From an uncultured Gammaproteobacteria bacterium (GTDB lineage Bacteria > Patescibacteriota > Microgenomatia > Daviesbacterales > UBA10151): DNA of 64,000 bases. Below are positions 5,941-59,131 of the stretch, piece by piece. How positions within the stretch are numbered: position 1 is the first letter of the stretch; each line of letters starts with the position of its first letter. The notes under the pieces are model-generated. The model saw nothing but the letters and a program-made list of their open reading frames with translations, was not told the DNA's origin and ran no database searches. The stretch is from NCBI GenBank assembly GCA_964524895.1, contig CAZGFG010000001.1:54936-118935 (forward strand), given 5' to 3'. The translations under genes were made by a program, and so were the position numbers.

Positions 5941-6100
5941 TTAGATAAAATAATGTTCCTAGAACTGCTATCCCATAAGCTATTTTTAAAAAAAATAGGG
6001 CATAGCTTGGATGATTTAAAAAGAGACTTAGCCCGGACAAAGCTAGAATCAAAATGCTCAAAAAAAACAGTTTGTTGCAAGTAGAGATTAATCTTTTCAT
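5912..6100 (-). CDS. Small hydrophobic protein (62 aa, 2 predicted TM); uncertain.
   Basis: ORF with two hydrophobic helices. It overlaps the start of 3157..5940 by 29 nt. No homology recognised. Confidence 0.25.
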   Translation of the reverse strand: MKRLISTCNKLFFLSILILALSGLSLFLNHPSYALFFLKIAYGIAVLGTLFYLIGIYYRHER

Positions 6101-6119
6101 AGCATTACTTGAAATATTA

Positions 6120-6125
6120 TATAAT
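6120..6125 (+). promoter_or_regulatory. Candidate -10 hexamer TATAAT for the 6151 gene.
   Basis: Perfect TATAAT 25 nt upstream of the ATG, with a weak TTCATA 18 nt further upstream. The region is AT-rich, so a chance match is plausible. Confidence 0.2.
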
Positions 6126-6150
6126 TGAAACCATATAGTAAATCTTCAAA

Positions 6151-7656
6151 ATGAAGCATGTATCCCTTCTTTTCCTTTATGCTTATATTACGGTGTTGCT
6201 GTTTTATCAACCGGTGCTTTTTACATATTTTTCACAGGATGACTTTTTTCATTTCAAGGTTAGCCAAACAGATGGAAGCTTAACAGGCTTTCTAAACCTT
6301 TTCGGCGCTCATTCCTTTCAAGAAAGAGGTATCGCTTTTTACCGTCCCATTTCCAGAGAGTTCTTATACCACACTTTTTACAACCTCTTTGGTCTTAACC
6401 CTATTCCATTCCGCCTACTGCAACTTACACTCCTCGCTGTCAATATGACTCTAGTATATCTGTTAATGCAAAAAATCTTTAGTGCAAAAACTTTATCTAT
6501 ACTAACTGCTTTTTTCTTTGGTATTACAGCTAGCAATGTTGCTCCACTATTTTATCTAGCAGGAGGCGCACAGACTCTCATCGCCACTTCATTTATTCTG
6601 CTTTGTCTTATCTTGTACTTAGAATTTCTGAAATCTAAGATAAAAATATATTATTTTGCTTCATTTATCACATACATATTTGCCCTTGCTTCTCATGAAC
6701 TATCAGCAAGCCTACCAATTATTCTATTACTACTTAGTTTTTCCTTAGTTTCTAAGAAACAATATTTGCATGAAGCAGTCCGGTTATTACCCTTTTTCAT
6801 CATACTTTCCTTATATCTTTATATAGATATACACATCATCGGATTCTCAGATCAAGAAAAACAATACCAATTAAGCGTAGGGGTAAAGACATTTATGAAC
6901 TCACTTTCTTGGTACTTTGTCTGGGGACTTGGCATTCCAGAAATGTTAATAGATTTTGTTTTTCCGGGATTCAAATTAAACCCAGATTTAATGAAATACT
7001 GGGGGAACTATTTTAGGATTATCTTTTCTGCTTTTTTTATAGTACTAGCAACGATCGCTTTCTCACTTACTTATCTATTATGGACAAAGAAGGCATTACT
7101 GTTTGATAAAAAATTTCTATTTCTACTATTCTGGTTTCCAATCGCCATTTTTCCGGTAACCTTTCTACCATTGCACAAATCAAGCTACTATTTGGTTCCC
7201 GCTCTCCCCGCTCTGTGGGGAGGAGTTTGGTATCTAATTTTCAATACGTACCGATCAATTAAACTAAAACATCAAAGAGCGGCAAATCTCTTTTTTGTAA
7301 TCTCCTTTCTTAGTTTTCTAATATTGTCCTTTACATCTATTAAGCTAGGTGAAACAACTTATTGGGCAGCCACTAGAGGAAAACTAGCTGAAAAGTTAGT
7401 AAAGGAGGTTAAATTCGCTTATCCTATCCTTCCTAAAGGAGCTCTAATTTATTTTGTAAACGATCCCAGTTACCCTTATGTTGCCCAAGATTGGGGAGGG
7501 ACTTCAAAACAAGCAGCATTTGCTTTGAATGGTGAAGACGCATTAAAGCTCTTGTATAAAGATCCCACTTTAAAAGTTTACTATCAAGATTTAAATAACT
7601 TGCCTGATAATTCTCCGAAGGAAAAAGTATATACTTTAATAATCAGAATCTATTGA
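6151..7656 (+). CDS. GT-C superfamily membrane glycosyltransferase (ArnT/PMT-like, 501 aa).
   Basis: Polytopic N-terminal region with an acidic motif FSQDDFFHF right after the first TM, then a C-terminal soluble domain. This is the typical ArnT/PMT-type GT-C architecture. Confidence 0.6.
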   Translation: MKHVSLLFLYAYITVLLFYQPVLFTYFSQDDFFHFKVSQTDGSLTGFLNLFGAHSFQERGIAFYRPISREFLYHTFYNLFGLNPIPFRLLQLTLLAVNMTLVYLLMQKIFSAKTLSILTAFFFGITASNVAPLFYLAGGAQTLIATSFILLCLILYLEFLKSKIKIYYFASFITYIFALASHELSASLPIILLLLSFSLVSKKQYLHEAVRLLPFFIILSLYLYIDIHIIGFSDQEKQYQLSVGVKTFMNSLSWYFVWGLGIPEMLIDFVFPGFKLNPDLMKYWGNYFRIIFSAFFIVLATIAFSLTYLLWTKKALLFDKKFLFLLFWFPIAIFPVTFLPLHKSSYYLVPALPALWGGVWYLIFNTYRSIKLKHQRAANLFFVISFLSFLILSFTSIKLGETTYWAATRGKLAEKLVKEVKFAYPILPKGALIYFVNDPSYPYVAQDWGGTSKQAAFALNGEDALKLLYKDPTLKVYYQDLNNLPDNSPKEKVYTLIIRIY

Positions 7657-7734
7657 GCATTAAGATAAATAAAAACTGGTAGACTCGTGAGAAGCATGCA
7701 GAAAATTTATTATTAAACTTCGCCAATTATTACA

Positions 7735-8055
7735 TCAACTCGATAAATTTCTTTTAACTTGCTTGTATTCTATTAATACTTGCGCGTATCCAATGATTAA
7801 AAATAAAATTCCTACTCTCATGATAATTTCTGCAATAATATCAAAACTAAATACGGTCATAAAATATGCCAAAATAAAAGAGATAAAGGTTAAGAAAAAG
7901 GATGCTTTGCTTTGTAACTTAAGTTTCCAAACATAGAAACCCCAGCCTAATAAAATCCAACTGTATATGTATATATTGAGCATAGGAAGAAGAAAAAGCA
8001 GGGTGAGTATCAAAAGCCAAATAATGAGGGGTACAAATCTAGTTATCCTTAACAT
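7735..8055 (-). CDS. Small integral membrane protein (106 aa, 3–4 TM), immediately downstream of and overlapping the 1165 aa GT-C gene. A possible GtrA-like accessory.
   Basis: Hydrophobic ORF overlapping the stop of 8039..11536 by 17 nt, which suggests translational coupling. There is no motif-level identification. Confidence 0.4.
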   Translation of the reverse strand: MLRITRFVPLIIWLLILTLLFLLPMLNIYIYSWILLGWGFYVWKLKLQSKASFFLTFISFILAYFMTVFSFDIIAEIIMRVGILFLIIGYAQVLIEYKQVKRNLSS

Positions 8056-11000
8056 ATCTCCTCTTTAATCTCCAAATCACTATTAGTAAACCAGATGAAA
8101 ACGCAACTTGCGATATTATCTCAGTTGAAAATAGTAAATCTTGAGGGGCATATTTAATAATTATTTGATAATCGCCTAATTTATCAATTTTCCAGCCGTT
8201 AGCATATACATTTACTATAAAATGGTCTGCCTGTAGTTCATTCCCAGATGTTGTTAATATTTTCCACCCGGGATCAAAAAGCTCAGATAATACAAGTATA
8301 TAAGGTTCTTTAGCATCAGTTATGTTGATTATATATTGCATGTCGCCTATTTTCTTAAAATCCACTTTAGGGGTACTACTTATTTTTTCTAAATTAGATT
8401 TAACTAAAATGGGCTCATCTATTAGATCCCTAGTAACAGAAAGGTTTCTTATTATTACTTCAGTCGTTCTATCATAGGGCTCCCTAAAACTTTTATCTTT
8501 GCATCGATTTTTGTTCCTAGTATAAAATATTGTCTCACAATCATTCCAAGGATTGACTTTTAATATCAATCTTGCTGTATCCGCCGTATTATTTAACTTG
8601 AAAGAACTGATAAAGTGTTTCTCTCCATAATAGTAATTGTCCGATCCTAAATTAGCAGCAAATCCGTATTCTATTTTACCTAACTTTATTTTAGCGTTAT
8701 TCTCCTCCGCAAGTACTTCAACCCCCAACCCTTTTTTTATCCAGTAATCAAATGCAACCGTATATTCTGCATAAGGATCGTAATTATTTATCGGAAAAGC
8801 CCTACTCGCTTCCCCGTGTTGCACCGTAAGAGTAAACTCATCTTCTGCATTTACTAAATTTACTTCATCAGGCGTATTGAGGGAAATCTCGTGCATCCCA
8901 GAGTCAAAATACATTTTTCCTAATGTCTGACGGCCTAACCGCCCCGGCATCCTTTTAGCAGGAACAATCTTGCTGTCTACCTGTAAAATAATCCTGCCAT
9001 CATTATTCTTTTTATAGTATTTATCTAGATACTCATCACCCCAAAAAAGTTCATATTCTCCGGGGGTGATTATCTTAAACCTATAAGCTATCCTTTTTCT
9101 TACAGTAAATCCATCTTCTTCCCTAAATCCAAAGATAGGTTGAATATTCTCGGTACTTAGCTTAGAATCGAGTAATCGCTGTATATCTTTTAACTGTTCG
9201 ACAATAATCTCATTTTCCGGGAAATGGTTTATCAATTCACTCAATACAACTTCATGTTTTGCAAAGATACCATATAGTTTCTCCTGCTTTATTACTTGCT
9301 TATTATAGATCGTGTGCGAAAGCCTATATCCAGCAAAGATTGGAGTAATTCCATCTAACAAGCTTTTGTATCCTTGAATGGCTATCAGGACGCCTGACGC
9401 ATTATTCTGTCCAGACTCTAATTTTGCCTCAACTAACCTTTTACCTAACAACATGATGATAAAATCCAGTTTTTTTGATATATTAGTATTAGATTCCAAA
9501 TCCATCTTTTCTTTCAGGAGTATCAATCTGTAAAAGCTGCTTGATGGAGGAAATTTAACATGAGGGAAAATATCTTGCCCTCCCTCCGTACTCTGTGTCA
9601 GACTTTCTCCTAGAGAAAGCCTAGCTATAGGATGAATTACTTCTTGATTCACCTTTATATCATTTAGGGAAAGGTCTCCCCCAATCAACACGTCATTACC
9701 ACTTAGAAAAAACTGCGTGTCCGATATTTTAGGCTGAGGAGATACTGCAATGACATGATCGGACAAAGATATTCTCCTATCAACCCACTTTGTATTCTCC
9801 CAAAAAGCAAGTTCTCCAAATACTTCAATCATCTTAAATTGCCCACCTTTGTCTTTTAATCTGTTAAATATACTTTGCGGGTCACGTATCTCCCTGATAC
9901 GCCAATTAATATCATTCCTAAGCATTATATATTTAGCATTTAATATGTTCATTACTTCTGAAAAACTTTCCTTTTTTAAAAAATGTTCCTCTAAACCTCC
10001 TGAAATATCTTTATAAAAAGGGATGTTGGTCTGAAAAGAGACTGAGGTGATTGGGAGTAATTGATTCGAAAGCTCCACACCGGCATAACCTTTTTCCCAA
10101 TTATAAGTAACCCCTTCATCTCCTAAGGGAAATGCTAAAAGACGGAAATTACCTGTTTCGGAATTAAGCCACCTAGAAGCTTGTTGATAATCATTAGGCA
10201 CTTTGACTTGGTAACCTATACTGGGAATATTTGCAGGGTATTCCTCGGCCGTAAAGACTAAACCGGTCCAATAAGGTAACCCGAGTATGCCCAACCAAGC
10301 TATGATTACAAAATAAGCATACTTCCGCCATTTCTCAAAAATTTTCCCGTTTAAGATATACACCCCGTACGCAAACAACGGTGCCGCGGCGAGGGGAAGC
10401 AAAAAACCAAATTTCTCAAATGAATTTCGAAAAACCTGCAAAAATCCGAATTTTTCAAATGCCAAGTTGAATAGTTGTCCAAATGGGGGGTTATTCCCCA
10501 TTGAAAGCAAAGTTCCAAGGATAAACAAACCACTTAATAGCAAAACCGAGTTTTTCTTATTTCTAAAAAATAAAGGGATAAAAATTATTAGTGAAAACGC
10601 AAAAGATAAAAAAGCAACCGGCGGAAAAGTATACAACTTTACCCACTGCATACTATCAGGGCCAAAGAAAGAAGCATGCTGCAACTTCACAATATTTATC
10701 AAACTACCTAGTTTCTGACTAAGAATAGAAAATATTAGTTGGTTATTTTCAGGCGAAAAAGACGTTTGCCTCACCGTGGAAAAACTACTTGAATAAATAT
10801 AACTAAAGGTTTGACTAATCCACCAAAGATTTGTTAAAAACCAGAAAAATAACGACAACAATAGAAATTTAATAACAAACAGTCTAGACTTGAAGTCATT
10901 ATAAGCAAATATATAAAATACTGCCGTGTAAACTAAGACTAACCAAAGTAAAATAATAAAAGCTGCAGAAGAAAGTGCATAAGCAAAAACGGTTGACGAT

Positions 11001-11536
11001 AGGCCAATCATTAAAGCGTATAATAAACGTCTCGTTTGTAACCCTTTGATAAAAAACAGTAGGGAAAGCGGTAACAGCAGATAGAAAACAAAAAAATTAT
11101 TTAAAAACCTGTTCCAAACATTTACCATACTAAATGGGTTAAACCAGTAAAATAAAACTGCTAGGAAGATAAATTTATTACTTAATGAGGGAAAAAGATT
11201 TTTAGTTAAATAATAGATACTTAACCCAGAAACAACTAAAACAACCCAAAAAAAAGACGCCTGGAGAAGGAAACCAGGTATACCAAGGTTTTGTAACTGT
11301 GCCAAAAGCCAATACATAGGTTTAGCGGAAACACTTATGTTGGTGGGATACCCTAGAGCATAATGAGCCCATGCATTTTTATTAGATTCATAGGCAATTT
11401 GGAAATTATAAAAAGGGATTCCGGATTCTCCTATGGCAAGAATATTCCCATCTTTAAACCATACCAAGACCAAAAGTAGCGGAATTAGTAATATAAGTAC
11501 TAAAGGAATGTTGACCCTTTTCAAGAATGAATTCAT
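8039..11536 (-). CDS. 1165 aa polytopic membrane protein, YfhO/AftD-like GT-C putative glycosyltransferase with a large extracytoplasmic domain and C-terminal TM.
   Basis: N-terminal ~650 aa is multi-TM. It carries the conserved internal block PSIGYQVKVPNDYQQASRWL...GVTYNWEKGYAGVEL shared with 45281..47503 and 1..3146, then a long hydrophilic domain and a terminal TM (VAFSSGLLIVIW). Confidence 0.6.
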   Translation of the reverse strand: MNSFLKRVNIPLVLILLIPLLLVLVWFKDGNILAIGESGIPFYNFQIAYESNKNAWAHYALGYPTNISVSAKPMYWLLAQLQNLGIPGFLLQASFFWVVLVVSGLSIYYLTKNLFPSLSNKFIFLAVLFYWFNPFSMVNVWNRFLNNFFVFYLLLPLSLLFFIKGLQTRRLLYALMIGLSSTVFAYALSSAAFIILLWLVLVYTAVFYIFAYNDFKSRLFVIKFLLLSLFFWFLTNLWWISQTFSYIYSSSFSTVRQTSFSPENNQLIFSILSQKLGSLINIVKLQHASFFGPDSMQWVKLYTFPPVAFLSFAFSLIIFIPLFFRNKKNSVLLLSGLFILGTLLSMGNNPPFGQLFNLAFEKFGFLQVFRNSFEKFGFLLPLAAAPLFAYGVYILNGKIFEKWRKYAYFVIIAWLGILGLPYWTGLVFTAEEYPANIPSIGYQVKVPNDYQQASRWLNSETGNFRLLAFPLGDEGVTYNWEKGYAGVELSNQLLPITSVSFQTNIPFYKDISGGLEEHFLKKESFSEVMNILNAKYIMLRNDINWRIREIRDPQSIFNRLKDKGGQFKMIEVFGELAFWENTKWVDRRISLSDHVIAVSPQPKISDTQFFLSGNDVLIGGDLSLNDIKVNQEVIHPIARLSLGESLTQSTEGGQDIFPHVKFPPSSSFYRLILLKEKMDLESNTNISKKLDFIIMLLGKRLVEAKLESGQNNASGVLIAIQGYKSLLDGITPIFAGYRLSHTIYNKQVIKQEKLYGIFAKHEVVLSELINHFPENEIIVEQLKDIQRLLDSKLSTENIQPIFGFREEDGFTVRKRIAYRFKIITPGEYELFWGDEYLDKYYKKNNDGRIILQVDSKIVPAKRMPGRLGRQTLGKMYFDSGMHEISLNTPDEVNLVNAEDEFTLTVQHGEASRAFPINNYDPYAEYTVAFDYWIKKGLGVEVLAEENNAKIKLGKIEYGFAANLGSDNYYYGEKHFISSFKLNNTADTARLILKVNPWNDCETIFYTRNKNRCKDKSFREPYDRTTEVIIRNLSVTRDLIDEPILVKSNLEKISSTPKVDFKKIGDMQYIINITDAKEPYILVLSELFDPGWKILTTSGNELQADHFIVNVYANGWKIDKLGDYQIIIKYAPQDLLFSTEIISQVAFSSGLLIVIWRLKRRYVKDN

Positions 11537-11543
11537 ATATAAA

Positions 11544-12176
11544 TTAAATCTTTTTTACAGCAACTAGACAGGAACTCATGTTTGGTAAAAAATAAGTAAT
11601 AGGAGACATTAAATATGAAATAACTACAAAAAAATATTTTAAATTCCTGAACCTATATAATAATCCTCCGCTCCGATAGATGTACTTGCTACCCTGACCG
11701 TAAACCTCATAGCCTAACTCCTTCATTTCATTTATTTCCCACCCTGACTGATGTCTCTGAAGTTTATTGTCATCTCTTATCTCGAAAGGGTCATATTTTA
11801 CATAACCATTTGGAGTAGTGATAATTACTCTGGATCTTGCAATATTTTCCAGTTTCTTAATTAGTTTCAGAGCGTCTCTTTTACTTAAATGCTCGACCAC
11901 CTGCGAAGCTAAAACTACATCGAATGACTTATTATTGACCTTAAGATTCCTGAGATCAGAACCTAGCAACTTCTTATAAACACCTCTTTTAGCAGCTTTC
12001 TTTAGATAGGGCTGATATAAATCAATCCCTGTAACATTATATTTTTTATCTAAATTCATTTTTGCCATTAATGCCCCGTCACCACATCCAACATCTAGAA
12101 CAGTTTTTGCATTATGGAAATGCTGGCGAATAATCCAGGGTGATGTATATGGAATAAAGGCCAGGATATTTTTCAT
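11544..12176 (-). CDS. Class I SAM-dependent methyltransferase (210 aa, type 11/12-like).
   Basis: Motif I VLDVGCGDGALMA and motif post-II VVLASQVVEHL. It is a paralogue of 41845..42474 and 44652..45275, and its stop is 8 nt upstream of the giant GT-C gene. Confidence 0.8.
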   Translation of the reverse strand: MKNILAFIPYTSPWIIRQHFHNAKTVLDVGCGDGALMAKMNLDKKYNVTGIDLYQPYLKKAAKRGVYKKLLGSDLRNLKVNNKSFDVVLASQVVEHLSKRDALKLIKKLENIARSRVIITTPNGYVKYDPFEIRDDNKLQRHQSGWEINEMKELGYEVYGQGSKYIYRSGGLLYRFRNLKYFFVVISYLMSPITYFLPNMSSCLVAVKKI

Positions 12177-12186
12177 AAGATTAATT

Positions 12187-13890
12187 TTATCTACAGACTA
12201 CGACAAAATCACTTGACTCTTCTTCTTTATTTTTGAGTACCTGAAAATCTTCCGTGCTAAATAATAGCTTAGATTCTCCAGTAATTATTCTTTTTGGATA
12301 TTCCGGTAAGAAGTTCATTATTTTCCTGATAAATCTCTTTTTTGTAAGGAAGTTTGCCGTTTTCCATCTTAAACTTTTATGCACCAAAATTTCTTTTTGA
12401 GCTTTTTGCTTGTTCTTTAAAACTACACCATATAAATTTACCGTTTCGAAATATTTATCAAGTAGTTGCTCCAGTTCGTTCGGATAATACTCATACACAT
12501 GGTATGGATTAGATGGTCTACTCCCGTCAAAAGAACTATATGTCTTATTAGGAGTAGACAAAATCAGGAAGCCGCCTTTTTTAAGACTCTTTTTTGCAAT
12601 CGTAATTAGCTTTTCCGGTTGTTGCAAGTGCTCGATAACTTCAAAAGCCACAACAACATCATACTTTTCAGCCAACTCTAATTTTTCTACATCCGCTTCA
12701 AGAAAGTTGATATTACTGTGTGGATTATGTCTTCTCGCAAAGCTTATCGCAGAAGGATCAACATCACAGGCAGTAATAATTTTGACACCATTTTCCGCTA
12801 AGTAATTACTGCCATATCCAGTCCCACACCCGATCTCCAGTAATTTTTTCCCTCTACAAAAATCAAGGGCGAATTTATACTTTACCAAGTGTAAACCATC
12901 AATATCACTTAAGGATGGACGCTCTCCAGAAAAAATGGTCTTTTTTGAGAATAGGCATATTACTATTCCTGCAAAAACTCCTTGAACGAGCTTTAACCAA
13001 TCAGATAACCTACCATACCTTAAAGCGAGTCTTAGGTAATAGATAATAAATATCGGTAAGAACAAAAGAAAAATAAAAAAGTTTTTACTAAAATCTTTCA
13101 TAAACAGGATCCTATTTCTCCCTATCCAATAACCTCTTGATAAAAGTCTTAATGATTCTTTTTTTGGCTCATGTGGTATCTTATGGTAGGCAAAAGCTGT
13201 GGGAGTATAAAAAACCTTAAAACCCTCTGCCCTTGCACGAAAACAAAAATCAGTATCTTCATATGTTGCAAAGTATCTATCGTCAAACGCTTTAAGTCTA
13301 TTAATAACTGACCTTTTTACCAAGAGAACAGCGGGTGCTACCTGCACTTCTTCCGGAGTTTCATATTGTCCTACATCAGTACCCCCCCTAAATAAAACTT
13401 GCCCACTCCATAGGTTAATACCTGTACCAGCTGACCAAATTCTTCTCTTATCGCCAAAATAAAGAATCTTTGGAGTGATAATTCCTATCGATGGGTCTAT
13501 TTTTATCAATCTCACTAATTCTTTGAGCATATTTTTATCCGCAATCATATCATGATCAAAAAAAAGTAAACAGTCTGAGGTAGCTTTTGCTTGCCTTATT
13601 CCTTCATTCCTGCCGCCGGTTACACCAGTATTTGTTTCCATAGTAATCACTTTAGCTCGGGGGAAGAACTTTTTAACCCTATCTGTAGTTCCATCTGTTG
13701 AATGATTATCTATAATAATAATTTCACGAGGCTTTAAGGTCTGTTTCTGAATAGAATTAATGCAAATTCTTAAGGTCTGCCAACTATTATACGTCGGTAT
13801 GATTACTGAAACAGCTGTTGTATTAAATTTTTCCATTAGAGATTCTAAAACAATAAAAAGTATATTACTATCCAACTTCTTTATCTTCAA
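12187..13890 (-). CDS. Bifunctional GT2 glycosyltransferase (N-terminal) fused to a class I SAM methyltransferase (C-terminal), with a central TM segment.
   Basis: N-terminus has VSVIIPTYNSWQTL...IIIIDNHSTDGT and a DxD-like DHDM motif (GT-A fold). The middle has hydrophobic helices (FFIFLLFLPIFIIYYL). The C-terminus has LLEIGCGTGYGS and VVVAFEVIEHL. Confidence 0.8.
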   Translation of the reverse strand: MKIKKLDSNILFIVLESLMEKFNTTAVSVIIPTYNSWQTLRICINSIQKQTLKPREIIIIDNHSTDGTTDRVKKFFPRAKVITMETNTGVTGGRNEGIRQAKATSDCLLFFDHDMIADKNMLKELVRLIKIDPSIGIITPKILYFGDKRRIWSAGTGINLWSGQVLFRGGTDVGQYETPEEVQVAPAVLLVKRSVINRLKAFDDRYFATYEDTDFCFRARAEGFKVFYTPTAFAYHKIPHEPKKESLRLLSRGYWIGRNRILFMKDFSKNFFIFLLFLPIFIIYYLRLALRYGRLSDWLKLVQGVFAGIVICLFSKKTIFSGERPSLSDIDGLHLVKYKFALDFCRGKKLLEIGCGTGYGSNYLAENGVKIITACDVDPSAISFARRHNPHSNINFLEADVEKLELAEKYDVVVAFEVIEHLQQPEKLITIAKKSLKKGGFLILSTPNKTYSSFDGSRPSNPYHVYEYYPNELEQLLDKYFETVNLYGVVLKNKQKAQKEILVHKSLRWKTANFLTKKRFIRKIMNFLPEYPKRIITGESKLLFSTEDFQVLKNKEEESSDFVVVCR

Positions 13891-14834
13891 GAGCCAGGAG
13901 GTGAAAGTTTCTTAATCTTAATATTACTTTCATAGGAGTTTACTACTTCCTGCCAAGTTGCAAAAGAAATGCCCAACCTTTTTTGAGTAATATCTGTTCT
14001 AAGACCCCCAAATTGGGGATACCGTCTGGGATATTTATTAAGATAGGATTTAATACTTGTTGATGGAATGGCATGATGCACTCCGGAAAACCGTTCAATA
14101 AGATGTTCTGCCATCTTGTGAGGTGTGCAAATATCTGTTGTAGAGACATGATAAATACCGGGTAATTTGATTGTTAATAACTTAATTATAATCTTTACCA
14201 AAGTTGGTATATAACTTAATGTTAAATATTGATCATTAAACAAAGGATAGATTTTTTTGTCTAAATATAGTTGTAATATTTTTCCAATATAATCCAGTTT
14301 AGGTTCATTTCCTGGTCGGGTAATATTACAAATTCTTATTATGGATGTTTGTTTTATATTCTCTAAAACCGCTCTTTCAGCTTCTCTTTTAGTGAGACCA
14401 TACCAAGATAATAATCTATCACTATCCTTAAATTTAGCATTTTCCCCGTATGGACCTGGATTTTTTTTATGCCCGGAAAAAATGTAATCTGTAGAGATAT
14501 GAATTAAAAAGGATTTGTATTGCTTGCAGATTTTAGCCATATATTTTGTACCTTCAACATTAACCTTCCATACATTTCCGTTTTTGTTACATCTTTCTTT
14601 CTCCGCCAAAGATGCATCTCTAAAAGCTGCAAAGTGCACAACAACTTCCGGTCTATACTTCTCAAAACATCTTTTAATAGTGTCTACTCTAATGATATCC
14701 ATCTCACTTCGACAAGGATAAATAATGTCCTTATCTTTAAATCTTTCAGAATAGCACTTGAGAAAATAAGAGCCTATTAATCCGCTACCCCCGGTTATTA
14801 GAACCTTTTTTCTTGCTGTTGTCTTAAAGCTCAT
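13887..14834 (-). CDS. NAD(P)-dependent sugar epimerase/reductase, extended SDR, RmlD-like.
   Basis: N-terminal VLITGGSGLIGSYF Rossmann motif and a YGLTK (YxxxK) catalytic motif. 315 aa. ATGA overlap with the upstream gene. Confidence 0.7.
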   Translation of the reverse strand: MSFKTTARKKVLITGGSGLIGSYFLKCYSERFKDKDIIYPCRSEMDIIRVDTIKRCFEKYRPEVVVHFAAFRDASLAEKERCNKNGNVWKVNVEGTKYMAKICKQYKSFLIHISTDYIFSGHKKNPGPYGENAKFKDSDRLLSWYGLTKREAERAVLENIKQTSIIRICNITRPGNEPKLDYIGKILQLYLDKKIYPLFNDQYLTLSYIPTLVKIIIKLLTIKLPGIYHVSTTDICTPHKMAEHLIERFSGVHHAIPSTSIKSYLNKYPRRYPQFGGLRTDITQKRLGISFATWQEVVNSYESNIKIKKLSPPGS

Positions 14835-15574
14835 TATTTTTTAGGGGCGAATAACTCGCTTTTTATAAAACTTAGTTGATGTAGTTCATAAATCAAAAGC
14901 ATCTTAACAGTTTCCAATACAAATTTAATCCCTTTTTGTAAACTCATCGAGGAAGATTTTTCATTATATCTTGTAGAAATTGGTATCTCCCCTACCCTAA
15001 ATTTAAAGCTGACTGCTGATAAGGTCATTTGCTCATCAAATAAGAAATCATTGGAAAATTTTTCAAATGGTACTGTTTTCAACAATCTAGCCGAATATGC
15101 TCTAAATCCCGAGAAATGCTCCGTAAAGTTTACACCTAAGAGAATATTTTGTAGTAAACAAAAGAAGCGGTTAGTATAATATTTTAATTTAGGCATCCCC
15201 CCTTTCAAAGCCTCCTCTCTGGTCGAAATTCTGCTGCCAAACATAAAATCATACCTTTTTTCGATGATTGGCTTGATTAAATTTCCTAAATAATAAGCGC
15301 TGTACTGATAGTCAGGATGTAGCATAGCCACAACGTCCGGCTTTAACTTTAAAGCCTCTCTGTAACATGTTTTCTGGTTACCCCCATAACCTATATTTCT
15401 ACTATGCTTAACTACCTTAATATCCAGCTTAGAGGCGATTGCTAATGTTTTGTCAATACTCTTATCATCAACTAAGATAATATACTTCCTAAATCTTTTT
15501 GGAATGTCAGTATAAGTCTCCAACAATGTTTTCTCAGCGTTATATGCTGGCATTACAATAACAACTTTACTCAT
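14834..15574 (-). CDS. GT2 glycosyltransferase, DPM1/Ppm1-like polyprenol-phosphate sugar synthase (soluble, 246 aa).
   Basis: VVIVMPAYNAEKTL...ILVDDKSIDKT. Small GT-A protein without C-terminal TMs. It overlaps the downstream GT-C gene by 8 nt, the classic Ppm1–Pmt arrangement. Confidence 0.7.
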   Translation of the reverse strand: MSKVVIVMPAYNAEKTLLETYTDIPKRFRKYIILVDDKSIDKTLAIASKLDIKVVKHSRNIGYGGNQKTCYREALKLKPDVVAMLHPDYQYSAYYLGNLIKPIIEKRYDFMFGSRISTREEALKGGMPKLKYYTNRFFCLLQNILLGVNFTEHFSGFRAYSARLLKTVPFEKFSNDFLFDEQMTLSAVSFKFRVGEIPISTRYNEKSSSMSLQKGIKFVLETVKMLLIYELHQLSFIKSELFAPKK

Positions 15575-17498
15575 CTAGATTAAGCTGTTTAAGTACTTCT
15601 TTTCTTATATCTATAAGGTCTCTATCTACAAACCTCATTACATAAAAGTTACTTAGTTTATAAAAGTGTGGCTTCTTCTGACCACCAATAATATTTTGAT
15701 AAATTATACCCTTAACACCATCTTTTTCAGTTAACCCGTTCTTCAGAATTTGTAAGCAGCTTTGATGGGTATGTTCTGGACACTGTATGTTTGTTCTTAT
15801 CATATTTAAGTACGGCCGATTTATATTAATCTCGTTGTTTTTATTGAATTTAGTCCAAAACTCAAAACCCGCCAATATGGTGCTTTCGTCGAAATAACCA
15901 TGCTCTTTATCTGCTGATTCATCGAAATAAAATAGCGATTCTTCTGTATCGCTTAAATTTGGAACTATACTCCAGAATTTATTTCTCATTCTGGTTTGAT
16001 CTTCTGAACCTAATCCAGCATAACTTAATTCGTAATCAAAAAAGTCATAGGCAACCTTCCTATCGATAATAAAAAGAGGGAGTAAGAGAAGAAAAACTAA
16101 CCAAGCCACGTTTTTTGTAATATTAATTTTCTTTAAAAAGGCTGTTAGTAGAATTAGGAATCCTGCCATAAACATACTCATTCCTATTGAGGGAATGCTT
16201 AAATATCGATGCGGACCTACAAAAACTAACTGTAGATCAGAAGCCATCCAGGTAAAAAAGATAAACAGAGCAGAAAAAACTGGACCTATTATTAAAGGCA
16301 GAAGTAGATTATTTTTAGTCTTGAGCCATATTAAAAACAGATTCACACTTAAAGAAATCACATAAAAACCTATCATTGTTGGAACCACCATTAATATTGG
16401 ATCGAAATGGACTCGAATAGCAGTATCTATAAACTGCCAATTCTTTGTAACCAGAAATGTTATTAAACCAAATATAAAAACAGGAATAGTAGTGGTTAAT
16501 ATTAATTTAAACGGTTTACTGGGTATCAAGAATGCTAACAAGGTTGTTAAAAGTGTAAAAATAAAAATAGGGCCCATTAGCAGGAAAGAGAGGTAATTAC
16601 TAAAACTTTCAGTATTAATTTTTCCAAAATATTCCAAATTATCACCATATAGAAAAATACTCCCTAAAGATGTAAAGGGATATAATAATAGCTGCCAATT
16701 CCCTGATAAAATACTATCTATCCTTTTTGATAACTCCAGGAAAAACTGGGGTACAAAGTATCCAGAGTTAACATCCTCTTTAAACCAAACAGAATAAACC
16801 AGGATAAAAAATATCAATGGAAAGAACAAGGCAAAAACCCTGTTAACGGATATTTTGATAGACTCCTTCTTAAACTTGTAAACAAATACGTAGAGGATCT
16901 CTGTTACTGTTATAAGGGGAAGCAAGGGGTACATTCTCTCAGTACTTAAAAACAGAGTTACCAGCATGAGAACGCTGCCAGTAACTAACAGTTTCATACT
17001 ATTTTTTGTTGTTAAGAGTATGTAGTAGATAATTAAGAATAGGTTCATAAAAATAGTTGCCAGAAAATATCCACCAGTTGCCAGCATAAACATCGGACCT
17101 ATATGAGTATAGGAGGCTGTGTATATTACACTTGTTAGGATAGCCAGTAATCTATTTTTGAAAACATTTGCAATAAGTAAATAAAGGCTTACAGCAGCCA
17201 GCAACTTAAAAAAATGGGTTGCTATATGAAGTTTTGTAAAGTCTAGGCCAAAAATAGACGATAAAAATCCTACATAATATAGCTGATAAGTGTAAGCACC
17301 CATCAATTGAAAGGACTCAATGAAGTGATCGAGAGATAGTTCTCCAAGAGATTTAAATCTATATAGCATCATCCAATCTATATCTCGAAAACCATATCTT
17401 ATTTGTTCTCCAAAAATAATCCTGTCGACGATAAAAAGCACTGGAAACAAAAATAAGATAATTATTGAATCTGTCCTTGTAAAGGAAAGCTTGTTCAT
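15567..17498 (-). CDS. GT-C-like polytopic membrane glycosyltransferase, 643 aa. Member of a five-gene paralogous family in this window.
   Basis: Multi-TM protein sharing KNRLLAIL, NIPSIG and a C-terminal FY..R.. amphipathic tail with 31671..33590, 33617..35494, 35561..37438 and 40236..41876. Confidence 0.6.
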   Translation of the reverse strand: MNKLSFTRTDSIIILFLFPVLFIVDRIIFGEQIRYGFRDIDWMMLYRFKSLGELSLDHFIESFQLMGAYTYQLYYVGFLSSIFGLDFTKLHIATHFFKLLAAVSLYLLIANVFKNRLLAILTSVIYTASYTHIGPMFMLATGGYFLATIFMNLFLIIYYILLTTKNSMKLLVTGSVLMLVTLFLSTERMYPLLPLITVTEILYVFVYKFKKESIKISVNRVFALFFPLIFFILVYSVWFKEDVNSGYFVPQFFLELSKRIDSILSGNWQLLLYPFTSLGSIFLYGDNLEYFGKINTESFSNYLSFLLMGPIFIFTLLTTLLAFLIPSKPFKLILTTTIPVFIFGLITFLVTKNWQFIDTAIRVHFDPILMVVPTMIGFYVISLSVNLFLIWLKTKNNLLLPLIIGPVFSALFIFFTWMASDLQLVFVGPHRYLSIPSIGMSMFMAGFLILLTAFLKKINITKNVAWLVFLLLLPLFIIDRKVAYDFFDYELSYAGLGSEDQTRMRNKFWSIVPNLSDTEESLFYFDESADKEHGYFDESTILAGFEFWTKFNKNNEININRPYLNMIRTNIQCPEHTHQSCLQILKNGLTEKDGVKGIIYQNIIGGQKKPHFYKLSNFYVMRFVDRDLIDIRKEVLKQLNLDE

Positions 17499-17594
17499 AG
17501 CTTGTGTTCCATCTTATTAAACTAATATACCATAGCCTATCTTTTTAGTACTTATTCCGCACCCAAAGACTATATTGATTTCAAGTAGTAATTT

Positions 17595-18773
17595 TTATCT
17601 GATTGCATTTAGTAATGAATCAACCCGCTTGTCCCAGCTCCAATTTGAAAAGATCATTTCCTGTGCCTCTTTTCCTATTTTTCCTCTTCTATTATTATCT
17701 GATAACAGCTCCACGACTGTTTGAGCAAATTTTGATAAGTCACCTATTTTTACCTTCACCATTCCTCTCGGGTAGTACGATTTGAAAGATACCAGCTCAA
17801 ATCCTACAGCAGGAATACCAAAAGCCATTGCTTCAGCCGATGCCATACCGCCCGAATCATAGAAGGAGGGATGGACTACTAATTTACTTTGTCCAAAGAT
17901 TCTATATTTTTCTGTCCCATCAAATACATACCCGAACAAACGAATATTTCTCTCTAATCCTTGCTCCTTAATTTTTTTCCTAACTTCATCCATAAGAGGA
18001 CCATCCCCTATCATCGCAAGTTTTGCATTGGGCATTTGTTTTGTAACCATTTGCCAAATTCTAATTAGCTCAACTACACCTTTTTGTGGATGAAACCTTC
18101 CTTGAAACACCGCATCGTATATTTTAGGTAGTTTATTCATTTTCTTTATGTATCTGTTAACCTCGTCTAAGTTAACTGCCCCCAGGAGTACAAATATCCT
18201 ATTTTTTTTGTCTAAATGGAGAAATCGTTTTTTCTCTTCTTCGTTATTTATTAACACTAAATCAGCATATCTGGAAATCAAAGGCTTTATCGGAAGTTGC
18301 ATTAACCAATAATATAAAGCGGATAATCTATAAGTTTTTTCTCTCGAACCTTCGGCAAAACCAATGAAAGGATTCGGAGCTGTTTGAAACCAAGCTGCAA
18401 TCCATTTAATTTTAGGATATCGTATTTTTAAAACAATGGCTGGAAGCGAATCCATCCAAAACTCTGATGCAGAGTAAATAATAGAGTCTTTATCTAATTT
18501 AACAAAAAGTGAATACCATACAGCTTTGATAATCCTTGCAAGATAACAAATAAAGAAACCTAGCTTACACCATGACGCTACATTAAGAATTTTGAACTCA
18601 ACTCCCTCAGTTAGACTCTGACTTTTACATATCTCATAACCTTCTTTCCATACATAAATAGTTACTGGATTAGTTTGCCTTAATCTTTTGGCAAGTTCAA
18701 TAAATATTCGGTCTCCACCAGATAACCCTTTTCCTAATGCTGCATTTGCAAATATGTGGTAATTTGGTTTCAT
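17595..18773 (-). CDS. GT4 family glycosyltransferase (GT-B fold, retaining).
   Basis: C-terminal signature LVVHPSFYDSGGMASAEAMAFGIPAV (E-x7-E region). Confidence 0.8.
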   Translation of the reverse strand: MKPNYHIFANAALGKGLSGGDRIFIELAKRLRQTNPVTIYVWKEGYEICKSQSLTEGVEFKILNVASWCKLGFFICYLARIIKAVWYSLFVKLDKDSIIYSASEFWMDSLPAIVLKIRYPKIKWIAAWFQTAPNPFIGFAEGSREKTYRLSALYYWLMQLPIKPLISRYADLVLINNEEEKKRFLHLDKKNRIFVLLGAVNLDEVNRYIKKMNKLPKIYDAVFQGRFHPQKGVVELIRIWQMVTKQMPNAKLAMIGDGPLMDEVRKKIKEQGLERNIRLFGYVFDGTEKYRIFGQSKLVVHPSFYDSGGMASAEAMAFGIPAVGFELVSFKSYYPRGMVKVKIGDLSKFAQTVVELLSDNNRRGKIGKEAQEMIFSNWSWDKRVDSLLNAIR

Positions 18774-19664
18774 TTAAGTATTCCTTTTTCCTAATTTCTC
18801 TAAATGGCTTAAAAAGCATCGGAGTTCTGAAACTAGGCCTAATTCTTGAATTCTTCTCTTATTCATAAAAAATTGTTTGTCTCCTCTTTCTTCATTTTGT
18901 CTTTGAAGAATAGGATACTCAAAAGGGACCTCAATACTTAATACCTTGTATCCTTTTCTCAAGGCCTGAACAATAGGAAAGAAGTTGGCATTCGAAGAGT
19001 CTTCCGCATCAAACAGTTGATGGTGTTTTGATTTATCATTAAGAGTAAAATGATAACGTTTTACAAACAAAGAAAATATTTCCTCATTATTAACAAATAC
19101 ACTTGGTCCAAAAAACATGTCTAGAGAGTTATCATCCAGGGCGATTAATTTGTGCGCGATTAGCTCTTCATTATAGGTTCTGTTACCTTCAGTCTCGGAT
19201 GCATATTGAAAAGATGGGTATGTCTTTTTAAATAACTCCTCGTTTCGCTTGGGGATAACAATATCTGCCCTACCCTCAAGAATAGGCTCAATAATAAAAG
19301 ACATGCAGTTTTCAATAATCGAAGTTTTTTCTGGTTCGGTTAAAGCTATAACTTTAATGCCAGAAATCATGCGTACTCTTTTGAGAACTTGCCTTTTCCC
19401 AGGTGAAGCTTTTGAGAAACGTCTTTTTATTAAGATAGTACCGGGGATTTTTCTTACTTCTATGTGAAATGATTGCGGCGTTTGCCAATCCCCCACAACC
19501 ACTGTATATCCTTTTTCTCTTGCCTTTGAAATTGATTTAAGGGCTAAATCTCCTCTAATCTTATCAGTATCTTTAATGCTTCTTAATTTTCCTTCATACC
19601 AATTTGGGTAAGATGTAATCAGAACAATTGCTATTTCGGATAAGCCAAAATCAAGCTTTATCAT
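18774..19664 (-). CDS. Hypothetical protein (296 aa), first gene of the long minus-strand operon.
   Basis: Clean ORF. Its stop abuts the GT4 start. No motif recognised; no TM. Confidence 0.5.
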   Translation of the reverse strand: MIKLDFGLSEIAIVLITSYPNWYEGKLRSIKDTDKIRGDLALKSISKAREKGYTVVVGDWQTPQSFHIEVRKIPGTILIKRRFSKASPGKRQVLKRVRMISGIKVIALTEPEKTSIIENCMSFIIEPILEGRADIVIPKRNEELFKKTYPSFQYASETEGNRTYNEELIAHKLIALDDNSLDMFFGPSVFVNNEEIFSLFVKRYHFTLNDKSKHHQLFDAEDSSNANFFPIVQALRKGYKVLSIEVPFEYPILQRQNEERGDKQFFMNKRRIQELGLVSELRCFLSHLEKLGKRNT

Positions 19665-19799
19665 TTGTTGTAATTTTAACAGAAATGCTACTAGTCTTTC
19701 TTAATATTCTCTAAAATATAGCAGTGTTGGACTTTCTGGATTAACAGACTGGTGTAATAGTAGAGAATAATTGGGAATTTTTAACAACTCCATAAACTC

Positions 19800-19828
19800 T
19801 TGACTATTCTTAAATCTCAGTTTAGTAT
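19800..19828 (+). promoter_or_regulatory. Candidate sigma70-type promoter for rfbF (TTGACT-17 nt-TAGTAT).
   Basis: TTGACT at 19800..19805, a 17 nt spacer and TAGTAT at 19823..19828, 16 nt upstream of the ATG at 19845. It lies in the 180 bp divergent intergenic region. Confidence 0.3.
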
Positions 19829-19844
19829 CGAGAATTAATAAGAT

Positions 19845-20624
19845 ATGAAAACCATTATTCTTTGTGGTGGAATCGGATATAGACTTAAAGAAGAAACTGA
19901 ATTTAAACCTAAGCCAATGGTCCTAATAGGAAATAAGCCCATCCTTTGGCATATAATGAAAATCTATTCTCACTACGGTTACAACGAATTCATCATAGCT
20001 TTAGGTTATAAGGGTGAATATATAAAAGATTATTTTTTAAATCAAAAATATTTCTTGGATAATTTCACGCTTTACACTAAGAGTGGATATACAAAACTGC
20101 ATAAGAATAAGCGGGATAATACCAGAGATGATTTTAAGATTACTTTTGTAGATACAGGACAAGATACCTTACCTGGAGAAAGAATATTGAGAGTGAGGAA
20201 CTTTATACCCGAAAATGATGAGAACTTCATGGTTACTTATGGGGATGGAGTATCTGACATTAATATAAATGAATTGGTTAAATATCACAAAAAACACGGT
20301 AACATCGGAACTATAGCTGGAGTTCATCCTAGAAGCAAATATGGACTTTTAAAAATTGATAGGGCATGTATTGTACAAAAGTTTGTTGAAAAACCAGTAT
20401 TAACCGAGTGGACAAGCGGAGGATTTATGGTCTTTAAAAGAGAGTTTTTTTCTTATCTCCGCAAAGGTGAATTTGAACATTTAGCCTTAAAAAGATTGAT
20501 CAGGAAAAAACAACTTTCTGTATATGTTCATAACGGTTTTTGGCACTCAATGGATACATATCCCGATGTTGACAACTTAAATAGGCTCTGGTTGGAGAAT
20601 CCTAGGTGGAAAGTTTGGAAATAA
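19845..20624 (+). CDS. rfbF: Glucose-1-phosphate cytidylyltransferase (CDP-glucose pyrophosphorylase).
   Basis: MKTIILCGGIGYRLKEETEFKPKPMV.IGNKPILWHIMKIYSHYGYNEFIIALGYKG closely matches the RfbF/DdhA N-terminal consensus (GGxGTRL...KPKPMV.IGG.PILWHIMK.Y). 259 aa. Confidence 0.85.
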   Translation: MKTIILCGGIGYRLKEETEFKPKPMVLIGNKPILWHIMKIYSHYGYNEFIIALGYKGEYIKDYFLNQKYFLDNFTLYTKSGYTKLHKNKRDNTRDDFKITFVDTGQDTLPGERILRVRNFIPENDENFMVTYGDGVSDININELVKYHKKHGNIGTIAGVHPRSKYGLLKIDRACIVQKFVEKPVLTEWTSGGFMVFKREFFSYLRKGEFEHLALKRLIRKKQLSVYVHNGFWHSMDTYPDVDNLNRLWLENPRWKVWK

Positions 20625-21587
20625 ATGAACTTAAACGGGGTTAATGTACTTGTAACTGGTGGTTGTGGTTTCATCGGCGGTCACCTTGTAGAAGAGTTAA
20701 TTGAAAAAGGCGCCAAGGTAACGGTCGTTGATATTAACTTAAATCCACAGTCTACTTTTGCCCTAAACAAGTTAGAAAATAAATCTGAATTAAAGTTTCT
20801 TGATATCCGTGATAGGATTAATGTCTTGCGTCTTTTCAAGCAAGTTCAACCTTCTTATGTCTTCCATTTAGCAGCACAACCTTTAGTAGAGGAAGCTTAT
20901 CTTAGCCCTTTTGTAAATTTTGAAACCAATATTATGGGAACCGTTAATGTTTTGGATGGAGTAAGTTTTGCCAGGAGTGTTAAGGGAATAATTGTTGCTT
21001 CATCAGATAAAGCATACGGTAAGAGTAAAAAAGCATACCAAGAAGATTTTCCTTTAAAGGGAGATCATCCCTATGATGTATCCAAATCTTCACAAGATTT
21101 GATTGCTCAAAGCTATTTTAGAACCTACGATTTACCAGTAGTAATTACCAGGTTTGGAAATGTTTATGGACAAGGAGATTTTCATTTCAGCCGAATAATT
21201 CCCGGAATCTGTGAAGCAATTATTAAGAATAAGCCCCTTTTGGTAAGAAGTAATGGGAGATATATCAGAGATTACATTTATGTTAAAGATGTTGTTAACG
21301 GATATATATTCTTACTGAAGAATATTGATAGATTAAAGGGCAACGCTTTTAATTTTTCTTCTAAAGACGGCTTGTCAGTTATTAATCTTATCAAGCTAGT
21401 TGAAAAGATATTAAGAGTAAAAATACCTTATAAGATCCTAAATACTGCTCAAAACGAGATTCCTTATCAACATTTAGACGATAGAAAAATAAGAAGAATT
21501 CGTTGGAAACCAAATTATACAATCGAAAACACATTCCCTAAAGTACTTGCTTGGTATAACGAAAACGGTATTTTCCGATTAACCTAA
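20625..21587 (+). CDS. NAD-dependent sugar-nucleotide 4,6-dehydratase, probably CDP-glucose 4,6-dehydratase (RfbG/DdhB-like).
   Basis: VLVTGGCGFIGGHL Rossmann motif and catalytic SSDKAYGKS (S/T-D-K-x-Y). It is directly downstream of rfbF with a 0 nt gap. Confidence 0.6.
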   Translation: MNLNGVNVLVTGGCGFIGGHLVEELIEKGAKVTVVDINLNPQSTFALNKLENKSELKFLDIRDRINVLRLFKQVQPSYVFHLAAQPLVEEAYLSPFVNFETNIMGTVNVLDGVSFARSVKGIIVASSDKAYGKSKKAYQEDFPLKGDHPYDVSKSSQDLIAQSYFRTYDLPVVITRFGNVYGQGDFHFSRIIPGICEAIIKNKPLLVRSNGRYIRDYIYVKDVVNGYIFLLKNIDRLKGNAFNFSSKDGLSVINLIKLVEKILRVKIPYKILNTAQNEIPYQHLDDRKIRRIRWKPNYTIENTFPKVLAWYNENGIFRLT

Positions 21588-21589
21588 TA

Positions 21590-22819: not shown

Positions 22820-22893
22820 ACTCCTAGAAATAAATCTTACATAATTCTAATCCCTACTCCTTAGCCTGTCAATATTATATACTATCGCAGCTT

Positions 22894-23979: not shown

Positions 23980-23988
23980 GCAAAATAA

Positions 23989-26075: not shown

Positions 26076-26130
26076 GGATCTAAACAATTAGTTGACATCG
26101 TAATAAACTTGTCTATTATATGCTGGTAGT

Positions 26131-31656: not shown

Positions 31657-31670
31657 ACTATCTCTATGGA

Positions 31671-33590: not shown

Positions 33591-33616
33591 AGTTTTGTAA
33601 TAGTATATCCTATTTT

Positions 33617-35494: not shown

Positions 35495-35560
35495 TTCTCT
35501 TAATACTGGTTTTTAAGGAAAGGTAAAAACCAAGATTTGTAAGGTTTTATCATATAAGTA

Positions 35561-37438: not shown

Positions 37439-37444
37439 AACAAT

Positions 37445-38836: not shown

Positions 38837-38839
38837 GCT

Positions 38840-42474: not shown

Positions 42475-42492
42475 AAGTTATAGTTTTAGAAA

Positions 42493-43500: not shown

Positions 43501-43628
43501 ATTTATGTATTAATTAACCACAGCTATCTTATTCAGAAACTAACCTTTTTTCAATATTTAAAATCTCCACTATATTTTCATCTATATATGATATTACTAT
43601 TATATATGTTAAACTTTTTTAAACTTTT

Positions 43629-45275: not shown

Positions 45276-45280
45276 ACTTA

Positions 45281-49487: not shown

Positions 49488-49589
49488 GTTTGCAAAAAGG
49501 CAGATATACTTTAGATGAAGGTTAATAATAAATCAAGTTTTGTATAAAAAAACATTTATCTTCTTAAGATAAGTGTTAAAATACCCTTC

Positions 49590-51606: not shown

Positions 51607-51648
51607 ATCTTTGCTATATTAAAAGTACGAAATTATTTTCAATATTAG

Positions 51649-53304: not shown

Positions 53305-53311
53305 ATTTAGT

Positions 53312-59130: not shown

Positions 59131-59131
59131 C

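Follow-up and report, generated by a model that had tools for sequence, protein, structure and literature searches.

The 64,000-nucleotide stretch of contig CAZGFG010000001.1 analysed here (the window) carries, at 12187..13890 on the minus strand, an open reading frame (ORF) of 567 amino acids (aa) that begins at a TTG codon, ends with a stop codon at 12187-12189 and joins a family 2 glycosyltransferase (GT2) to a class I S-adenosylmethionine (SAM)-dependent methyltransferase. An earlier reading, made from the sequence alone (the sequence-only reading), had predicted the order GT2, hydrophobic helices and class I methyltransferase together with the Pfam families concerned, and a Pfam scan confirms both. 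PF00535 (Glycos_transf_2) matches residues 28-161 (E 3.9e-31, 108.7 bits for a cutoff of 23.3) and PF13641 (Glyco_tranf_2_3) residues 27-244 (68.1 bits, cutoff 27). The C-terminal part matches PF08241 over residues 351-444 (E 1e-20, 74.6 bits, cutoff 21.2), PF13489 (E 2e-20, 73.6 bits, cutoff 27) and PF13649 (E 4e-17, 63.1 bits, cutoff 27).

An AlphaFold2 model built on 27 homologs (mean predicted local distance difference test score, pLDDT, 86.2; predicted template modelling score, pTM, 0.58) is confident within each domain. The GT-A catalytic domain (residues 27-240, 13171..13812) is followed by two amphipathic juxtamembrane helices (residues 242-251 and 253-267, 13090..13167), which include a conserved Arg/Asn cluster (R248, R252, R258, N259 and R260), and by a hydrophobic helical hairpin, the predicted membrane anchor (residues 271-291 and 295-314, 12949..13080). 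A disordered linker of 14 residues (315-328, 12907..12948, pLDDT below 50) leads to the methyltransferase domain, hereafter MT_A (residues 329-567, 12190..12906), with an N-terminal helix, a Rossmann core and a C-terminal lid (494-566); all these features lie on the minus strand. Kyte-Doolittle hydropathy places the hydrophobic segments at residues 266-292 and 295-313. Of the "two or three" hydrophobic helices first proposed, two are thus present in the model and a third is not.

The catalytic motifs of both domains are, as far as can be judged from sequence, intact. The N-terminal domain has the GT-A three-dimensional fold of the GT2 family, and its residues D61, D112-H113-D114 (the DxD motif), E211-D212 and H236 show at least 90% conservation, up to full invariance, across the 27 homologs. 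The SAM-binding residues on which the assignment of the C-terminal domain depends are also there: motif I reads LEIGCGTGYG (350-359), with C355, G356 and G358 invariant in the same homologs; the acidic residue after strand beta-2, D375, is Asp or Glu in homologs and aligns to the Asp of a phosphoethanolamine methyltransferase structure; and D400, E420 and H421 are at least 90% conserved, H464 being conserved as well. No NCBIfam equivalog-level assignment is reached by either domain. The matches of MT_A are generic and include UbiG, phosphoethanolamine N-methyltransferase and unannotated methyltransferases from structural genomics. The range of substrate classes accepted by class I methyltransferases is very wide, and this, together with the exclusively generic matches, speaks for an alternative in which the methyl acceptor is not the sugar transferred by the GT2 but, for example, a protein, a small molecule or a lipid tail, or in which the domain is catalytically dead and purely structural. 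This alternative seems distinctly improbable.

The gene calls of 549 aa among cluster members with at least 90% identity correspond to a start at M19, placed at the ATG 13836..13834, and more distant fusion orthologs are 543-548 aa long. The true product is therefore probably a 549-aa protein starting at the ATG at 13836, although no clear Shine-Dalgarno motif precedes either the TTG or the ATG candidate.

GT2-only orthologs (288-316 aa) with a separate downstream methyltransferase gene occur in other genomes, so that a split state is biologically possible, and the fused ORF might accordingly be two adjacent genes joined by a sequencing or assembly error or by a recent frameshift. However, over 7704 bp that include the junction, the whole gene and its neighbours, the window is matched at 100% identity by the independent Logan assembly of SRR12113424. 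In the 90%-identity cluster, five of the six members are full-length (549-567 aa), on several contigs of up to 150 kb and with one in NCBI, the sixth being a 304-aa fragment on a 1.2-kb contig. The same colinear two-domain architecture recurs in 25 further clusters (57-67% identity), and the junction, a conserved hairpin plus linker, aligns across homologs without a change of frame. The fusion is genuine, and its explanation as an artefact, to which we attach a negligible probability, is effectively refuted.

A free-standing methyltransferase gene, MT_B (11544..12176, minus strand, 210 aa), starts 10 nt downstream of the fusion stop codon. The window contains three free MT_B genes of about 210 aa, at 11544..12176, 41845..42474 and 44652..45275. 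The fused domain had been taken to be of the same type as these, which proves incorrect: MT_A is 25-27% identical to the MT_B proteins of the window (E 1e-6 to 1e-7), over the Rossmann half only, and its C-terminal lid is different.

In a sister lineage, unlike in this ORF, it is the free-standing type that is fused to the GT2. The proteins of this second fusion group (500-525 aa) share a GT2-hairpin part that is 45-50% identical and continue into a different C-terminal domain, whose best match in the window is the protein of 11544..12176 in 15 of 15 cases (34-41% identity over about 200 aa, E 1e-39 to 1e-60). These matches indicate that the C-terminal domain of the sister-group fusions is an ortholog of that free MT_B. 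GT2-MT_B fusions make up 28 clusters, and two more, P0052 and P0053, carry a divergent methyltransferase.

Gene order was compared across 36 loci scanned with custom hidden Markov models for the GT2-hairpin part, MT_A, MT_B, the 1165-aa neighbour described below and the other operon genes. A GT2-MT_A fusion accompanied by a free MT_B is found in the window, L005 and L006, and the same fusion with no MT_B in L001. The GT2 is fused to MT_B in L003, L007, L009 and L016, and to MT_B with a free MT_A (252 aa) in L017 and L020. All three are separate in L028. A GT2 gene followed by a free MT_B occurs in L008, L018, L022, L025-L027 and L033, and a GT2 gene directly preceding the large glycosyltransferase gene, with no methyltransferase, in L011, L012, L031 and L032. 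Finally, the Joint Genome Institute (JGI) metagenome protein P0026 (795 aa) is a triple fusion of GT2-hairpin (3-313), MT_B (319-521) and MT_A (548-794). Its MT_B precedes its MT_A, opposite to the order of the genes in the window.

Of 30 distinct GT2 orthologs, 10 carry a fused methyltransferase, and a further 12 are followed within 150 bp by a methyltransferase gene. Such alternative fusions follow the Rosetta-stone pattern and therefore tie both MT_A and MT_B to this GT2. Comparative genomics, through alternating fusions and adjacency, thus strongly backs the proposal of the sequence-only reading that a single pathway includes both glycosyl transfer and methylation. The further proposal of a functional link between the methyltransferases and the neighbouring transferases stands for this GT2, to which the fusions connect them; for the large glycosyltransferase encoded downstream, the link is only indirect and comes from conserved gene order. 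In a neighbour-joining tree of the GT2 domains, the MT_A fusions form one clade and the MT_B fusions appear in at least three places among unfused forms; the tree has no support values and is used as a hint only, namely that the MT_B fusions may have arisen or broken more than once.

The carriers of the locus are Microgenomates-group Patescibacteria (Daviesbacteria, Woesebacteria and Levybacteria). Many of the locus-bearing third-party-annotation metagenome-assembled genomes (L010, L014-L016, L018, L021, L022, L025, L027, L030 and L032) are titled "uncultured Gammaproteobacteria bacterium", which, on these Microgenomates-type records, looks like a default or wrong label.

Downstream of MT_B on the same strand lies a gene for a 1165-aa protein (8039..11536) with a polytopic N-terminal part, extracytoplasmic beta-sandwich domains and a C-terminal transmembrane (TM) helix. 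A Pfam scan of this protein itself gives no match, and searches of PDB sequences with the single sequence or with a 13-sequence profile return nothing meaningful. PF11847 (GT-C_AftD) is present in about half of its 120 closest homologs, NCBI names some of these homologs arabinofuranosyltransferase-family or DUF3367 proteins, and a paralog in the window matches PF11847 at E 0.0015. The predicted structure (pLDDT 85.5, pTM 0.76) retrieves AftD in the top three positions of a Foldseek search (6w98, E 9.4e-16 and TMq 0.47, then 6wby and 6wbx; E 9e-16 to 2e-12 and TMq 0.41-0.47 overall), followed by STT3, DPY19 and AftA. On this model, the neighbour would have an AftD-like fold, that is, a GT-C membrane domain with extracytoplasmic carbohydrate-binding-like domains. 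An AftD-like large GT-C is encoded downstream on the same strand for 17 of the 30 distinct GT2 orthologs.

The end of the GT-C gene is overlapped by a small ORF (7735..8055, minus strand, 106 aa) with about three TM helices. Similar ORFs follow the GT-C gene in other loci (L001:15143-15463, L003:18846-19133, L005:15786-16094, L006:15769-16068 and L007:11640-11993; 95-117 aa). Small membrane ORFs of this kind (78-117 aa) are poorly conserved and stand directly after each AftD-like GT-C gene, often overlapping it. Their products could be flippases or accessory subunits of the GT-C. The minimal conserved unit consists of the GT2, the GT-C and the small membrane ORF (L007, L009, L011, L012 and L032).

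The module of GT2 with hairpin, GT-C and small membrane ORF is duplicated within the window. The paralogous copy, in which nothing is fused, occupies 43629..47732 on the plus strand and comprises a GT2 with a hydrophobic helix (43629..44651, 340 aa), an MT_B (44652..45275, 207 aa), an AftD-like GT-C (45281..47503, 740 aa, sharing 40.5% identity with the 1165-aa protein across 580 aa) and, at 47496..47732, a small membrane ORF of 78 aa. Direct GT-A/GT-C fusions, combining a GT2 of the type of this paralog (43629..44651) with an AftD-like GT-C, are encoded at L024:3541-6666 (1041 aa) and L030:2385-5435 (1016 aa).

Upstream of the fusion, and also on the minus strand, the operon includes an RmlD-like NAD(P)-dependent sugar reductase (13887..14834, 315 aa; TIGR01214 at 139 bits, below the cutoff of 224), whose stop codon overlaps the TTG of the fusion and whose position is conserved in L005 and L007. 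It is preceded by a soluble GT2 of the AglJ/PpgS/dolichyl-phosphate hexose transferase type (14834..15574, 246 aa), all matches of which are below cutoff; this protein is the operon's GT2 of polyprenyl-phosphate sugar synthase-like type. The first operon gene (15567..17498) encodes a polytopic GT-C-like membrane protein of 643 aa from a second family, with paralogs at 31671..37438.

It seems likely that a single lipid-linked saccharide in the pathway of the GT-C is the substrate of both the GT2 and the methyltransferases. The best overall explanation, for which we would give about even odds, is a bifunctional membrane-anchored enzyme that glycosylates and O-methylates a lipid-linked sugar, the product being used by the GT-C. 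Because nucleotide sugars and SAM are cytoplasmic, the two catalytic domains must lie on that side of the membrane, which a two-helix hairpin would allow, as would a monotopic anchor. The inverting GT-A domain would move a sugar from a cytoplasmic nucleotide sugar to a lipid-linked acceptor, most likely polyprenyl-phosphate-linked, at the inner membrane face. MT_A, tethered by the hairpin and the flexible 14-residue linker, would remain on the cytoplasmic side and O-methylate the lipid-linked sugar, and the separately encoded MT_B could methylate this sugar once more, at a different position. After methylation, the lipid-linked sugar would cross the membrane, possibly helped by the conserved membrane protein of about 100 aa, and be used outside by the AftD-like GT-C to decorate or build a cell-surface glycan. 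In this model we infer the topology, the lipid-linked acceptor, the O-methylation of the sugar and the hand-over to the GT-C. The lipid linkage is suggested by the membrane hairpin and by the gene context, and the Arg/Asn cluster of the juxtamembrane helices may be placed where a lipid phosphate would sit.

It is conceivable, at slightly below even chances, that the saccharide is specifically a polyprenyl-phosphate monosaccharide donor, the acceptor of the GT2 being bare polyprenyl phosphate. One trait of polyprenyl-phosphate sugar synthases is indeed present, namely a C-terminal membrane hairpin after juxtamembrane helices together with a GT-C partner gene (17 of 30 loci). Several observations nevertheless weigh against this proposal or against parts of the overall explanation. 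Neither PgfS nor ArnC is among the 25 best NCBIfam models for the fusion GT2, whose best partial matches are MftF, the rhamnosyltransferase TIGR01556, EpsD and AglG. When a GT2-hairpin profile is compared with PDB structures, the many GT2 matches are confined to the N-terminal nucleotide-binding half; DPMS (8e-13), GtrB (6e-8) and ArnC (5e-6 to 1e-5) align only to the N-terminal 110 or so residues. Despite the hairpin and the gene context, the fusion GT2 thus lies, by sequence and fold ranking, outside the clade of polyprenyl-phosphate sugar synthases. A canonical PgfS/ArnC-like enzyme is moreover encoded elsewhere in the window (29463..30452), matching PgfS over its full length at E 6e-65, below the curated cutoff. 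The small membrane ORFs belong to no family in Pfam and NCBIfam scans, being neither GtrA nor SMR nor MATE. In orthologs of the fusion, only the first hairpin helix passes the hydrophobicity threshold, and the second is weakly hydrophobic, so that the anchor could be monotopic rather than a hairpin. Lastly, an adjacent methyltransferase is missing in 8 of the 30 orthologs, and methylation would therefore be accessory.

The assignment of the acceptor is tentative, because the GT2 most resembles GlfT2 and not the polyprenyl-phosphate sugar synthases. The acceptor-side half of the GT2-hairpin profile (positions 184-274) matches only GlfT2-type enzymes in the PDB (1.4e-6 to 5e-6), and this GlfT2-specific match covers the juxtamembrane helices together with the catalytic half. 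An alternative is therefore to be weighed in which a GlfT2- or WbbL-like elongating, possibly processive GT2 adds one or many sugars, on the cytoplasmic side, to a preformed polyprenyl-diphosphate-linked oligosaccharide, the methyltransferases decorate or cap the chain in the manner of WsaE and WbdD, and the AftD-like GT-C branches the exported polymer, as arabinan follows galactan in mycobacteria. We regard it as a tentative, rather unlikely alternative. The ORFs of the window that were scanned include no priming phosphoglycosyl transferase, no Wzx flippase, no Wzm/Wzt ABC exporter and no match to the UDP-galactopyranose mutase family; the minimal conserved unit holds only the GT2 and its two membrane partners; and the N-terminal barrel domain of GlfT2 is absent, the modelled protein beginning at the GT-A domain.

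Other matches of the GT2 point to a glycolipid. Besides PF13641, the domain matches PF13632 and, weakly, the NCBIfam model of the carotenoid glycosyltransferase CruG. Moreover, one ortholog, P0063 (573 aa, GT2-hairpin at 7-296), has a precomputed match to PF01066, CDP-alcohol phosphatidyltransferase, which hints at a phospholipid-related step. Mycobacterial AftD, for its part, serves lipoarabinomannan as well as arabinogalactan. The GT2 might then glycosylate a membrane lipid other than a polyprenyl one (a carotenoid, diacylglycerol or the head group of a phospholipid, for example), its head-group sugar might be methylated by the methyltransferase, and the GT-C might extend this anchor on the outer side into a lipoglycan comparable to lipomannan and lipoarabinomannan. 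This seems improbable: only one such fusion is found, lipid glycosyltransferases are matched weakly and below cutoff, and nothing in the window indicates a specific lipid acceptor.

Class I SAM methyltransferases joined to GT2 modules in one polypeptide are known from WsaE of Geobacillus stearothermophilus NRS 2004/3a, an N-terminal 2-O-methyltransferase with two rhamnosyltransferase domains (PMC2943079), and from ORF6 of Klebsiella pneumoniae O7, whose two GT2 modules share the polypeptide with a methyltransferase, a kinase and a coiled coil (PMC11231755). In each protein, the modules have one lipid-linked glycan as their common substrate, on the cytoplasmic side of the membrane (PMC2943079, PMC11231755). 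However, WsaE and ORF6 are soluble or coiled-coil "ruler" proteins with an N-terminal methyltransferase and two glycosyltransferase modules, and the polymer whose growth they end by methylation (or methyl-phosphorylation) leaves the cell through Wzm/Wzt. The present protein has only one GT2, its methyltransferase is C-terminal, and a membrane hairpin takes the place of the coiled coil; its partner is a GT-C, and no ABC transporter family is present among the scanned ORFs of the window.

The layout recalls multi-component transmembrane glycosylation systems, in which a membrane-linked GT-A enzyme works with a small flippase of 3-4 TM helices and a GT-C (PMC8035078). The combination of a membrane-linked GT-A, a GT-C and a small membrane protein is shared with CsbB/GtcA/YfhO, GtrB/GtrA/GtrX, ArnC/ArnEF/ArnT and the three-component pentofuranose system of Citrobacter, where auxiliary epimerases tailor the lipid-linked sugars before flipping (PMC11127046). 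The locus differs from these systems in that its fusion GT2 is not, by sequence, a member of the CsbB/GtrB/ArnC clade, Pfam does not place its small ORF with GtrA, SMR or MATE proteins, and one or two methyltransferases are added. To our knowledge, which does not come from an exhaustive search, methyltransferases have not been described for three-component glycosylation systems.

In mycobacterial arabinogalactan biosynthesis, GlfT2 (Rv3808c) and AftD are the best structural matches of the GT2 domain and of the neighbouring GT-C, respectively, and likewise put a cytoplasmic GT2 and an extracytoplasmic GT-C to work on one envelope glycan, as is proposed here. The GT2 domain is, however, only 15% identical to GlfT2 in sequence and has no counterpart of its barrel, no genes for UDP-galactofuranose or decaprenyl-phospho-arabinose are seen in the window, and the host is a Patescibacterium of the Microgenomates. 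We know of no GT2-methyltransferase fusion in mycobacteria.

A precedent for methylation in a lipid-carrier pathway may be seen in Haloferax volcanii, where the methyltransferase AglP serves a glycan assembled on dolichol phosphate (PMC3871713). In this Agl pathway (AglJ, AglG, AglI, AglE, AglP and AglB), GT2s build the glycan on a polyprenyl-type phosphate carrier, the SAM methyltransferase AglP methylates it and the GT-C AglB transfers it outside (PMC3871713). The best match of the 246-aa GT2 of the operon is AglJ, and the fusion GT2 weakly resembles AglG, all these matches being far below the family cutoffs. The Haloferax enzymes differ in being separate proteins, and their GT-C is an oligosaccharyltransferase, not an AftD-like protein.

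Fusions of GT2 and methyltransferase domains are already known and common. JGI automatic annotation already labels orthologs "GT2 family glycosyltransferase/...methylase", and a HMMER scan of 1.84 billion representatives retrieves 1491 proteins at E <= 1e-30. The top 150 of these are dominated by giant multi-domain proteins, and P0125-P0265 include proteins of 1000-4437 aa in which several matched stretches, up to eight, are stacked. Three giants checked with Pfam contain three or four GT2 modules plus TPR repeats, and two of the three also have a class I methyltransferase (e.g. P0143 and P0130); such proteins are probably single-polypeptide glycan assembly lines. Among the arrangements are GT2-methyltransferase-GT2x3-TPR in P0143, GT2-methyltransferase-GT2 in P0124 and soluble GT2-MT_A proteins of about 540 aa in P0146 and P0161. 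A literature search on GT-C or methyltransferase fusions in bacteria of the candidate phyla radiation (CPR) found nothing relevant; the papers on a "glycosyltransferase-methyltransferase" proved to concern fungal gene pairs, not fused, that serve small-molecule methylglucosylation. A GT2-methyltransferase fusion is thus by itself neither rare nor surprising. Particular to the present case are the single GT2 with a membrane hairpin and a C-terminal methyltransferase, its coupling to an AftD-like GT-C in CPR bacteria, and the interchangeable fusion with two methyltransferase families.

Nearly the whole window (3157..63733) is one surface-glycan island. It encodes at least nine polytopic GT-C-like proteins of two families (at 3157, 6151, 8039, 15567, 31671, 33617, 35561, 40236 and 45281), two carbamoyltransferases (47682..49487 and 53312..55051), an MBOAT and AlgX-like pair (38840..40249 and 37445..38836), NeuB (21590..22819) and a set comprising a dehydroquinate-synthase-like protein, an FGGY kinase, a HAD protein and a thiamine diphosphate (ThDP) enzyme (22894..27960). 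An Arn-like set includes the PgfS/ArnC-like protein of 29463..30452, DegT (30436..31656), an ArnD-like deformylase (62166..62993) and a formyltransferase (62990..63733). Another adjacent pair of a GT2 (59951..60985, 344 aa) and a class I methyltransferase (59132..59938, 268 aa), on the minus strand, belongs to other families. The protein of 51649..53304, a candidate paralog of the fusion by its similar length and its hydrophobic segment in mid-protein, was ruled out as it is an NAD synthetase.

A split transketolase-like pair (57410..59130, plus strand) has its N-terminal ThDP-binding part and its pyrimidine-binding/C-terminal part encoded by separate genes. Such a pair recurs near the GT2-methyltransferase locus elsewhere (L001:8724-9982, L003:2497-4488 and L006:5977-7232). 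In L003, the pair is accompanied by genes for SIS, GHMP kinase and DegT proteins, and this neighbourhood suggests the synthesis of an unusual heptose or branched sugar.

It is possible, though doubtful at present, that the GT2-hairpin-MT_A protein, MT_B, the AftD-like GT-C and the small membrane protein constitute an extracytoplasmic glycosylation system with four or five components that is particular to Microgenomates and has not been described before. In such a system, a polyprenyl-phosphate monosaccharide would be O-methylated once or twice in the cytoplasm before flipping, the GT-C would install the already methylated sugars on the surface, and the synthase would come from a GlfT2-like and not a GtrB-like lineage.

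Patescibacteria, to which this ultra-small CPR bacterium belongs, have tiny genomes, and most of the 64 kb seen of this one is spent on surface-glycan genes. The alternating fusions assign joint work to a single family of GT2s, two families of methyltransferases and a single family of AftD-like GT-Cs. This joint assignment narrows down what has to be expressed in order to learn which methylated sugar these episymbiotic bacteria display. If it is true that a polyprenyl-phosphate monosaccharide is methylated, this would represent a new tailoring step in the three-component glycosylation paradigm.

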